From: Octopus vulgaris
Taxonomy: Eukaryota
Assembly: GCA_951406725.2 (NCBI GenBank)
Contig: OX597823.1
Coordinates: 92,504,001-92,568,000, forward strand
DNA length: 64,000 nt
Direction: 5' to 3'
Shown here: positions 47,480-51,330 of the stretch, in pieces
How the letters are laid out: each line of letters begins with the position of its first letter
How positions within the stretch are numbered: the first letter of the stretch is position 1
Program-made: the position numbers and the translations under genes
Notes under the pieces: model-generated
The model's database searches: none
Told to the model about the DNA's origin: nothing
What the model saw: the letters and a program-made list of their open reading frames with translations, nothing else

Positions 47480-47783
47480 GTGAAGGCGTGTTGCCTAGTG
47501 GCTAGATTGTTGCACTCAAGATCGCTATATCATGGGTTCGATTCCCGAACGATCAGCGCCTTGTGTTCCTGAATAAAACATTTCATTTCATACATTATTT
47601 ACATTTGATGAATATTTGTCCTCATCTTGTTTGTTGTTAATACAACGTTTCGGCTGATATACCCTCCAGCCTTCATCAAGTGTCTTGGGGACATTTCGAA
47701 CCTGAGTTCTCTTCTTATATATAGTATATATATATATATATATATTATAATGTTATAACAACGACAACAACAACAACAATAAC

Positions 47784-47848
<65 letters not shown>

Positions 47849-48190
47849 CATCGAAAAATACCTTAGGAATAAGAACCCAGGTTCGAAATTTCCCCAAGAC
47901 ACCTGTTGAAGACTAAACGTGTTGACAAAAAACAAGATGAGGACAAATATCCGTCAAATATAAATAGTGTAAATAATGTACATAATATTTCATCTCTTAA
48001 ACATGGAACTGTATTTCATTTCATGTTGCTCCAGTCCACCCAGCTGTAAAAGGGACACCCTGTGATGGAATATCTTCCCAATCAGAGAGGTAGCATCAGT
48101 CAAAAGCCAATGGAGCAGCATTATTTGAATGCTAAAAAGAACGCGGGGCGCATTGTGACCAGCGATGTATAATAGCATCCGTTAGTTTAG
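47480..48190 (+). mobile_element. tRNA-like SINE interrupted by an inverted-pLTR cassette
   Basis: Head with ggttcgattcc B box at ~47535; body resumes at 48013 after the TSD. Confidence 0.7.
47592..48012. mobile_element. Head-to-head pLTR mini-element with HHR motifs, 12-bp TSD
   Basis: Arms ~47592-47712 and ~47868-47980 are reverse complements around (TA)/(AAT)n; TSD atttcatttcat at 47580-47591 and 48013-48024. Confidence 0.82.
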
Positions 48191-48692
48191 TTGATACCGT
48201 GATACCATCTTATTTATCCTTACGCGGCGAGCTGGCAGGACCGCGAGTGCGTCGAACAAAATACATAACGGCATTTCACCTGGCTTTCTATCTTCTGAGT
48301 TAAAATCCCATCAAGATTAACTTTGCCTTTCATCCTTTCGGGGTCAATACCATTTAAGTAGAGGTGTTGGTGTAATCGACTTGTTCCCTTCCCCCTTCAA
48401 TCACTGGCCCTGTGCTAAAGTATGAAGTCTGTTATATATTCACCTTCCCTTTCAAACATTTAACATGTAGCACCAGTTCATGAGGCAACAAGACCTGCAG
48501 GAAACAATTAATAAATCACTCAAAAAAGAAAATCACTTCCTTCTTAATAAAATGTAGTGCGGATTATGTAGATTGTAGTTTTGTTTACTTGTGCCTGAAT
48601 AAATAAAAAGTAATCGTGGGGACCATAATTAAATGCACTTGGTAATGTGTATGGTGGCCTAAGACTGGGTTTTGTTAAATATTTCCATGTAA

Positions 48693-49073
48693 TCTCTCTA
48701 TATATATATAAACGGCAAAATGTCTGTCTGTCTGTGTGTGCGTGCGTGTCCTTTATACAAATCCACAATTTTTCTGTTAGAGGGCTCGCACTTTCTATGG
48801 TCATTCAAAACCATCCAACGGGGGTCGTGTACATCTTTATATTTCCCCAGTCACCCCGCAAAGCCATTAAAAAATCAAAAGAAGTGATTTTTGGCGAATT
48901 TTCTATCCCAAACCCAATCAAAATGCCCGAAACTTGATACACCAATTGAATGCCAGCTAGCTGTATATGATTGGTCGGAGATTTGGACAGTACTCGCGTG
49001 TATGTGCGCACGCACGCAGCTGTATATGCATGCACTAGCACTATGACCCGGCGTTGCCGGGTCATAGAGCTAA
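48693..49073 (+). mobile_element. Non-autonomous Helitron
   Basis: 5' TC after A; 3' hairpin CTATGACCCGGC-gtt-GCCGGGTCATAG (49041-49067); CTAA (CTRR) end followed by T; no TSD. Confidence 0.8.
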
Positions 49074-49740
49074 TAACTAGAAACAATAGAATAAATCTAA
49101 AATATATAAATAAATGGTTTGATTCAAGCTCCTGGAAAGACCTAGTTTACTTCTATTAATTCTGATATTGGCTACTCGGGGAATGGAGGCTAAACCCAAT
49201 TCAAGAGAATTCCAAATCAGAAATTAAAAAGGTGAATTATTTTCTATACATGTCAAAGTAACTCCAAAAGGTTCTCTCACTCAATTCTATGTTCCATTGC
49301 TTGCCTAGAGCAAAAATGGCCGATTCCTCAAGCATCAAAAATCCCCTGCCAATTTTTGAAACGTTTGTAGTTATTCACTTTGAATCTACTAATTAAATAC
49401 TCGAATGAACCCTGGAGGATAGAAAGTAAGACGAGACCGGGCAATATTAGAAAGCCATGAACGAAAGTGCAGCAGATCTTTAAATGCAGATCTTAATTTG
49501 TTCCACGTCCGCAAGCCTTTAGGCCATCAGAATTGCAAAGAGATGCAATTGAATTCTTGAGATTAATGTTCAATGTTGCTATTGGTAACATTCCACGTTT
49601 GACTGATTATTATTGCCCATTGATGGAATGAAGTTTTCCTTGCATCTACGGAAGAAAAATTGCAACTAACAGCTTATACTCTTTACACTATTTACATTAT
49701 TTACATTTGACGGATATTTGTCCACATCTTGTTTGTTGTT

Positions 49741-49786
49741 AACACAACGTTTCGGCTGATATAGCCTCCAGCCTTCATCAGATGTC
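49741..49786 (-). ncRNA. Minimal hammerhead ribozyme with canonical core
   Basis: Reverse complement GACAT-CTGATGA-A-GGCTG-gaggctatat-CAGCC-GAAACGT-T-GTGTT; sister copies at 47639-47684 (-), 50465-50509 (+) and a deleted one at ~47897-47925 (+). Confidence 0.78.
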
Positions 49787-49873
49787 TTGGGGAAATTTCG
49801 AACCTTGGTTCTCATTCCTAACGTATTTTAAAATGTTGTTGTTATCATCATCATCATCATCCTCATCATCATT

Positions 49874-49938
<65 letters not shown>

Positions 49939-49944
49939 TATTAT

Positions 49945-50002
<58 letters not shown>

Positions 50003-50053
50003 GCTACCACCACTACTACTACTTCTACTACTATCATTATTATTATTATTATT

Positions 50054-50325
50054 CAGATCATAGCCGGGAATCGAACTCGCGATGAAAACGTAGCAGTAGT
50101 ACCAATAATTGTCGGAGATCTGGTAACAATGAGCAAAAATCTTGAGAAGTATGTGGAACAAATAGGGGCTGCACTAAGGGTGGAGCACTTGCAGCAAACA
50201 GCACTGATTGGAGCCGCTCCAATACTCCGGAAGGTGCTCAAAAAATGTGAAGTTACCTTAGTTCACTAGTAGTGAACAGCTGACATTGTAGTACATCTCC
50301 AACTTTAGAAGCTGTGCAAAGGAAA
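50054..50325 (+). mobile_element. R4/Dong-like 3' fragment ending in (TAA)n
   Basis: VVPIIVGDLVTMSKNLEKYVEQIG...LQQTALIGAAPILRKVL, short 3' UTR, then (AAT)n. Confidence 0.78.
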
Positions 50326-50342
50326 TAATAATAATAATAAAA

Positions 50343-50388
<46 letters not shown>

Positions 50389-51330
50389 CAACAACAACAA
50401 AACAACAACAACAACATCGAAAAATACCTTAGGAATGAGAACCCACGTTTGAAAGTTCCCCCAAGACACTTGATGAAAGCTCGAGGGTATATCAGCGAAA
50501 CGTTGGGCTAACAACAATCAAGATGAGGACAAATATCTGTCAAATGTAAATAATGTAAATAATATAAATAATGTACATAATTCTCCGTCTTTTAAATACA
50601 GAACTGTATTAATAGCTTACAGTCAACCTTTTCACAAAACATATTAGTTGTTTTGGTGAGACACGTTGTGTGATGATGAATTATAATGCAGGAGCTCAAA
50701 AATACTAGCAGGGCATAATATGTTTATAAGTGGTCCTAATACCATGAAACGTGATTCTTAAGTATGCTTAAGTAGGGATTAATTAATTATGAGGTAAACC
50801 ATCTTGCGTAAATGATTAATTTAATTAGACTTTAAGCTCCACTAATGAATATTACTCCTTAGACACAAGTGATATTTAAATGAAAACTTAAGAAGAAAGA
50901 ACGGGTATGGAAAGACAAAATAAGAAATTTTAATTACACACGTAGTTAGGAATTAATTAGACTTTCTGCTCCAGCGTCAATTCCTTCGCAGAATTGTTCA
51001 CTAAACCCAACTGAATCTATTCATATCACATAAGAACCATTTTAGGTATGGATTTCTAATTTATGAAGCATTTTCTACTAATCACTATACACTAACAGGA
51101 AATAAACAGAAACAGAATGAAAAAGAATGAAAATGCAAAGTTGACCCCATTGAGATTTGAAATCGGAGCGTAAAGAACCGGAAGAGTAGAAAAGAATATT
51201 GAGTCACTTTTTTTAAGTACATTCTAGTGTCTCGTTATTTTCTCAGCGACCCCTCACTTTCAATCGCCAATTTAAAAAATGATTTTCTTAAGTGAATCTT
51301 ATAAATATTGTCCTAATTTATTTGTTGATT

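Follow-up and report, generated by a model that had tools for sequence, protein, structure and literature searches.

Two old head-to-head stumps of a Penelope-like element in Octopus vulgaris, and the family with a tRNA-like segment from which they derive

Penelope-like elements (PLEs) of Adineta show an inverted pseudo-long terminal repeat (pLTR), a 31-bp tail on one side only, target-site duplications (TSDs) of 8-10 bp and 5′ palindromes (PMC3846280). A general PLE insertion scheme with an inverted pLTR and a tail is also available, in which the way these inverted repeats and one-sided tails form is described as undefined (PMC8557442). With purified PLE protein, a predicted dimer, nicking and extension of both strands of the target were observed, and reverse transcription began at two internal positions that set the limits of the tail (PMC11167929). 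The minimal type I hammerhead ribozymes of metazoan PLE pLTRs are thought to act as same-sense dimers (PMC4209133). Here we describe two inverted pLTR pairs, units 1 and 2, in a 64,000-nt stretch of Octopus vulgaris DNA (contig OX597823.1, positions 92,504,001 to 92,568,000; hereafter the window, with position 1 at its first letter).

The octopus family resembles the endonuclease-positive PLEs Pen2a_Av and Pen2_Av of Adineta (PMC3846280) and the general scheme (PMC8557442) in its head-to-head inverted pLTRs with an optional tail of 30-40 bp on one arm, in a pLTR that contains the first codons of the open reading frame (ORF), in a 5′ palindrome and in TSD-flanked solo pLTRs. It differs from the Adineta elements in the length of its TSD (mode 12-13 bp against 8-10 bp, although local alignment may overextend this value), in the tRNA-like segment and triplet tract of its pLTR, and in its tens of thousands of ORF-less stumps. 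With Poseidon_Ac (PAc) of Anolis it shares a pLTR hammerhead overlapping the frame, ends that differ by a tail, and AT-rich targets; the available text on Poseidon_Ac mentions no tRNA-like head, and the mechanism was demonstrated there in vitro, whereas we infer it for the octopus family (PMC11167929). Its hammerhead corresponds to the minimal type I class (PMC4209133) in the CUGANGA core, stem II, GAAA, palindromic 15.2-16.2 segment, missing helix III and predicted dimer-only activity, but in the units described here the copies lie on opposite strands and three of four are broken. In the TRIMp3 elements Cassandra, Helenus and Ajax, too, the terminal repeat includes a segment that derives from a small RNA and has A and B boxes; these elements are non-autonomous LTR elements, whereas the octopus segment sits in the pLTR of an ORF-bearing PLE (PMC10886601). 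Non-LTR retrozymes are non-coding, derive from PLE pLTRs and possess a type I hammerhead, but they are defined by head-to-tail tandem units each with its own hammerhead, while the octopus units are inverted pairs (10.64898/2026.07.22.740005).

Units 1 and 2 are two old, damaged, ordinary head-to-head PLE stumps. Each consists of two 5′-truncated pLTR copies placed head to head within a 12-bp TSD. With a probability of roughly 0.5, the two copies of a unit were built together, reverse transcription being primed from both nicked strands of the target on RNA coming mostly from one source. The layout has already been published for PLE insertions (PMC3846280, PMC8557442), in agreement with the view of an earlier reader, who had only the letters of the window (the sequence-only reading), that such pairs could be a reproducible product of PLE integration; it is likely made afresh at each insertion. 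The features of the two units are listed below.

47480..47591, + strand: 5′ part of the short interspersed element (SINE) interrupted by unit 1, tRNA-type, of another family; start approximate
47580..47591, + strand: unit 1 left TSD, 12 bp, exact, ATTTCATTTCAT
47592..47717, - strand: unit 1 short arm, pLTR core 19-145, without tail, hammerhead core with C3>U
47718..47845, + strand: unit 1 spacer, (TA)n followed by an (AAC/AAT)n tract belonging to the forward pLTR
47846..48012, + strand: unit 1 tail arm, pLTR core 1-187, with a ~20-nt deletion through hammerhead stem II
48013..48024, + strand: unit 1 right TSD, second exact copy of ATTTCATTTCAT; the SINE resumes, to about 48050
49665..49676, + strand: unit 2 left TSD, 10/12 identity with the right copy
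about 49677..49838, - strand: unit 2 short arm, pLTR core 1-155, without tail, intact minimal hammerhead core
49839..50053, - strand: unit 2 expanded triplet tract (ATC, TAC, ATT) of the reverse pLTR
50054..50079, - strand: unit 2 remnant of the tRNA-like head of the family, B-box end (22/26, E=0.011)
50080..50323, + strand: unit 2 foreign non-LTR retrotransposon 3′ end, 244 bp; copies end in (AAT)n
50324..50411, + strand: unit 2 (AAT)n/(AAC)n tract of the forward pLTR
50412..50607, + strand: unit 2 tail arm, pLTR core 1-187, hammerhead degenerate
50608..50619, + strand: unit 2 right TSD

These coordinates bear out the description of two units, each made of a reverse and a forward pLTR and sharing the right end GAACTGT. 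The 3′ ends of the repeat face outwards; the right arms end in GAACTGT, and the left arms stop within (AATGTAAAT)n, 33-42 consensus positions earlier. The sequence-only reading called the left ends slightly different; what sets them apart from the right ends is the PLE tail, which is more than a slight difference. As it had noted, neither unit contains PLE coding sequence beyond the pLTR itself. Its 12-bp duplication around unit 1 is exact, while that of unit 2, given as ~10 bp, is a 12-bp duplication whose copies differ by two transitions. The interruption of the SINE by unit 1 was also read correctly: all 17 other SINE copies from the collected loci have this 12-nt sequence in single copy, which means that its duplication arose with the insertion of unit 1. 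The four arms of the two units are the only copies of the family within the window. The two arms of each unit are 82-86% alike, no more than arms of different units, and share no derived site. Both units are likely dead, having lost the head and three of four hammerheads. No empty site of either unit was seen in the contigs of 4 of the 24 listed sequencing runs. Contigs from the same runs passed from unique flank into the unit 1 arm by 13-24 nt and into the unit 2 arm by 35 nt, and these short overlaps hint, weakly, that related samples have the same insertions.

The arms are pLTRs of an ORF-bearing PLE that encodes reverse transcriptase (RT): the head and core follow the ORF, the ORF encodes RT, and at locus L220 the pLTR runs into the ORF. 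BLAST recovered the order ORF, stop, 24 bp, palindrome, tRNA-like head, (AAT)n and pLTR core, all on one strand, at 19 of 20 loci found with an ORF query, and at the 20th the start of the head was recognised by eye (the 20 include repeats, as L061 repeats L059 and L071 nearly repeats L068). The RT domain was detected in ORF copies of the family (Pfam RVT_1, E=1.4e-10 and 4.3e-9). Downstream of the RT thumb a VYSIPC..YKGET-like motif was seen by eye, which may belong to a GIY-YIG endonuclease; the one ORF fragment scanned gave no GIY-YIG match in Pfam. Domain order and these motifs would suit a placement in the Penelope/Poseidon clade. At L220, the one locus examined in this respect, the frame stays open from the hammerhead region of the pLTR through the tail into the ORF. 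A symmetric junction inside the ORF was also noted at G000:C18:68458095-68458915, where a fragment of the ORF joins an inverted copy of itself, both ending at query position 83.

Searches of the genome with two arms returned about 3,000 candidates each, of which 40 were scored and 30 loci kept per query. Abundance was estimated in a systematic sample of 1.0 Mb, made up of 100 segments of 10 kb each that were placed at round coordinates. It contained 14 pLTR insertions: six head-to-head pairs and eight single arms, none with an ORF. Extrapolation to the genome gives about 21,000-66,000 insertions and 6,000-37,000 pairs. At six pairs per Mb, two pairs within 2 kb are above average and require no special cause. 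The family is star-like, its copies radiating from one consensus at about 4% each.

The anatomy of the pairs was determined in 47 cases from loci L001-L180, units 1 and 2 included and two duplicate loci dropped; half of the first 60 loci had been chosen with a tail-bearing query. A tail of ~35-45 bp is present on exactly one arm in 45 of the 47 pairs, on neither arm in two and on both in none, and the tail-less arm stops 25-45 bp short of the end of the tail arm. TSD scores of at least 7 were obtained for 29 of 45 pairs, against 2% of 1,500 mismatched flank pairs; this supports the view of the sequence-only reading that the insertions are independent and their duplications reproducible. Inner ends were called automatically, and an internal deletion disturbs at least the call for L012. 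By these calls, 20 of 45 pairs have a tail arm that extends further 5′, another 20 have a short arm that does so, and in five the arms are equal. At L033, L062, L063 and L065 the ORF is located in the tail-less arm. In the junctions of L019, L020, L021, L036, L056 and L060 the two central nucleotides of the head palindrome are found in either orientation with respect to the tail arm, a flip/flop that fits the annealing of two cDNAs as well as a fold-back from either arm.

Priming from two nicks would proceed as follows. A staggered cut about 10-13 bp apart would supply two primers, one of which would start reverse transcription at the tail end and the other at an internal (AATGTAAAT)n site. 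The resulting cDNAs would stop or be trimmed at different points and would then be linked to each other, in many cases at the 12-bp palindrome that probably marks the start of the RNA. Most copies are short (about 300 nt), as could arise if RT start sites are also used in the 5′ pLTR of the element RNA, or if short head-started RNAs are copied. We favour two-nick priming because of the action of purified PLE protein on both target strands (PMC11167929), the discordant pairs described below, the non-nested arms and the ORF in the tail-less arm; the latter argues against a copy of one tail-bearing cDNA, unless a large deletion followed. No published description of twin priming in PLEs was found in the literature searched. 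Two-nick priming fits the data slightly better than fold-back, and both may occur.

Whether one or two templates were used was approached by comparing partner arms, as the sequence-only reading had suggested. In a first test of 40 pairs, arms differed by 7.8% within and 8.2% between loci (p=0.08), a difference that is not significant because the family is star-like. Core position 133 (A>T) served as a sharper marker; T occurs there in 31 of 144 unselected arms (about 22%) and in 2 of 18 in the systematic sample. The exact pattern for T matched 579 places in the genome; among the first listed, 69 were examined, 40 lying in pairs and 29 being single. The partner was scorable in 37 pairs, reduced to 36 by dropping one apparent duplicate, with one T read by eye. 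The partner also carries T in 28 of these 36 pairs, A in seven and C in one (T in 12/13 of the first batch and 16/23 of the second). Unselected pairs comprise 32 AA, 6 AT, 4 TT and one other, so that 6 of the 10 bearing T are discordant. Both arms of each unit described here have the common allele (A/A); with no shared derived site either, units 1 and 2 are uninformative in this test. Partner arms of the marker pairs still differ by 6.6%, compared with 7.4% at random. These counts indicate that both arms come mostly from one source at insertion, and that about a quarter of the pairs behave as independent draws. Gene conversion was considered as the cause of marker sharing and judged unlikely, in view of this 6.6% against 7.4% and of shared CpG decay showing no excess (p=0.125).

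Several observations weigh against priming from two nicks. The concordance of 28/36, together with nine other non-CpG private variants shared by partner arms against 2.1 in permutations (0/1,000; duplicate retained), would be predicted directly by fold-back, whereas twin priming requires that both arms be copied from a single RNA or come from a single source locus; the non-significant result of the first identity test is a further difficulty. The marker-selected set includes one pair with two tails (L272) and several without a tail, the palindrome is extended symmetrically at many junctions, which is the trace expected of a hairpin primer, and the 20:20 asymmetry of 5′ reach could be produced by later deletions across the centre of a long palindrome. 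Finally, every copy seen is old, the best being 98.7% identical to the consensus.

The strongest competitor, which we hold to be possible and somewhat less probable than our preferred reading, is that a tail-end-primed cDNA reaches the 5′ end of the RNA, forms a hairpin at the palindrome, copies itself and is cut or joined 25-45 bp short, the centre being lost later; the units would still be PLE by-products. Beyond marker concordance, shared private variants and symmetric junctions, this would account for the single tail per pair, and it has precedents: self-priming was inferred from palindromes at inverted junctions (PMC3846280), and the tail has been ascribed to endonuclease resolution (PMC8557442). 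The seven discordant pairs of 36, however, would call for template switches, and symmetric pairs number only 5 of 45, so that deletions are needed in the other 40. Nor does it readily explain a short arm that extends further 5′ in 20 of 45 pairs, or an ORF found solely in the tail-less arm at four loci. Nested pairs are also no more concordant (6 T, 3 A and 1 C) than non-nested pairs (14 T and 4 A). For the fold-back step put forward in the sequence-only reading, the sharing of markers above chance speaks in favour, and the discordant and non-nested arms speak against. Given roughly 6,000-37,000 pairs and a subfamily marker, fold-back and two-nick priming can be tested against each other at scale in one genome.

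The unusual part of the family is that its pLTR opens with tRNA-like sequence, a possible promoter. A 74-nt segment with A- and B-box-like motifs lies upstream of the triplet tract and pLTR core, follows a 12-bp imperfect palindrome, and is also present in ORF-bearing copies, after the ORF stop. Compared with 35 distinct host tRNA sequences, it best matches tRNA-Arg (46/75; score 59 against a shuffled maximum of 39); no tRNA was called in it by Rfam at E<=10 (5 loci) or by ARAGORN (32 loci). Among 92 head-bearing arms outside the ORF-selected loci, 48 start at head positions 89-99, i.e. at the palindrome and tRNA-like position 1, and 12 at 78-88, where the alignment probably runs on over the palindrome; another 26 start deeper inside and six lie farther upstream. 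The cluster at 89-99 likely marks the RNA 5′ end, and an RNA polymerase III (Pol III) promoter function of the head is plausible, both as read from sequence features. The absence of T4 runs was dropped as a sign of Pol III transcription: the sense strand has 0 in 2,193 nt (p=0.11 against a dinucleotide model), and a control non-LTR element also has 0 in 992 nt. At L100:7041-7112, about 4 kb from a head-to-head pair, there is a tRNA match of 52.7 bits with a Lys-like anticodon, CUU.

It is conceivable, though on balance doubtful, that an autonomous Penelope captured a tRNA-derived Pol III promoter and that its RNAs are copied twice by one enzyme complex, from both nicks and at two start sites, with the 12-bp 5′ palindrome as a built-in joint. 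If so, the thousands of stumps would form a natural record of PLE integration, and SINE-like amplification would be driven by PLE rather than long interspersed element (LINE) enzymes. Should the head be a working promoter, the theme of small-RNA promoters known from SINEs and TRIMp3 would extend to PLEs. We found no published description of a tRNA-headed PLE or a PLE-mobilised SINE; Repbase, Dfam, subscription journals or supplements may hold the family.

Alternatively, the short copies could belong to a separate tRNA-headed SINE that borrows PLE enzymes, the pairs being two SINE RNAs inserted together. The clustered starts (48/92 at 89-99, with only six passing upstream of position 78), the lack of an ORF in all 14 insertions of the systematic sample and the resemblance of the head to host tRNAs are in line with this proposal, which we nevertheless regard as improbable. 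The same head is found in the ORF-bearing element, so no separate family is needed, and since the tail is the start of the ORF, reverse transcription starting internally in the 5′ pLTR would yield the same short copies without a SINE. The proposal is compatible with two-nick priming, as short copies may act as further sources.

The sequence-only reading also considered a non-autonomous, retrozyme-like hairpin, and it placed a hammerhead motif in each arm. The family consensus does carry a minimal hammerhead in its pLTR, and of 13 arms in the systematic sample six keep the core pattern unbroken. In the units, CUGAUGA, stem II and GAAA are retained together in one arm of four, the left arm of unit 2 (about 49745-49790). 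The ~20-nt deletion in the right arm of unit 1 takes out stem II, C3>U affects the left arm of unit 1 and the right arm of unit 2, and stem II of the latter is damaged as well. Rfam returned no match at gathering score in the window. The ~20-nt deletion was tried as a subfamily mark and rejected, as its breakpoints vary among the loci that share it. Many small deletions that remove stem II, with differing breakpoints, were seen in pLTR core 60-100 of L002-L030, loci picked with the deleted query, so that no rate can be drawn from them.

A fixed element of this kind, retrozyme- or miniature inverted-repeat transposable element (MITE)-like, with ribozymes on both strands and moving as one unit, would explain why the two units agree in polarity, in their right end and in the length of the TSD, and why pairs are as common as six per Mb. 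It is largely refuted by the variable junctions and the majority of single arms, and we give it hardly any weight: inner ends vary widely in the 45 pairs, either arm may be longer or hold the ORF, and single arms make up 8 of the 14 insertions found in the systematic sample. The same 1 Mb contained no head-to-tail hammerhead arrays, only single arms and inverted pairs. A minimal hammerhead depends on a second copy in the same sense (PMC4209133), and an inverted pair cannot supply such a dimer in cis because its two hammerheads lie on opposite strands; three of the four cores are broken here in any case. Predicted folding of units 1 and 2 gave -133 and -272 kcal/mol, with longest uninterrupted helices of 21 and 35 bp (values obtained without a shuffle control), and the folding energies of single arms showed no excess over shuffles. 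As unit 1 has no head and unit 2 keeps only the head's end, double-stranded RNA from either, in which the sequence-only reading saw a possible ADAR substrate, would require host read-through. Least probable of all are two separate insertions at different times that came to lie head to head by chance, which would suit arms that share no derived site and are no more alike within than across units, but which is largely refuted by the one TSD flanking the pair (29/45), and is opposed by the one tail per pair (45/47) and the marker concordance.

The middle of unit 2 had been described as microsatellite throughout. It consists of triplet tracts, 26 bp of the tRNA-like head and the 244-bp 3′ end of an unrelated non-LTR retrotransposon, which we take to be Dong-R4-like. 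All 11 other copies examined of this retrotransposon end in (AAT/AAC)n, the genome holds about 1,500 candidates, and one copy has RT and a zinc-knuckle-like stretch upstream; the fragment in unit 2 itself had no match in Pfam. An octopus repeat survey lists Dong-R4 and Penelope families and, in its available text, makes no mention of hammerheads (PMC13282606). The (AAT)n lies on the right side of the fragment only, and the left side abuts the truncated head. Two histories would fit: a later insertion of the fragment, accompanied by a deletion, or a chimeric RNA as the template of the tail arm. Other repeats of several hundred bases, flanked by (ATT)n, lie inside the triplet tract of the pairs at L017, L019, L020, L032 and L036; it would seem that the pLTR microsatellite serves other elements as a landing site.

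Two further repeats were noted near the units. The segment 48690-49075, between them, is a high-copy repeat with very high contig depth in runs X3 and X8 and little in X10 and X12, and is possibly younger or lineage-restricted. A short repeat at 48269-48409, very high in copy number in all four runs examined, resembles a SINE fragment.

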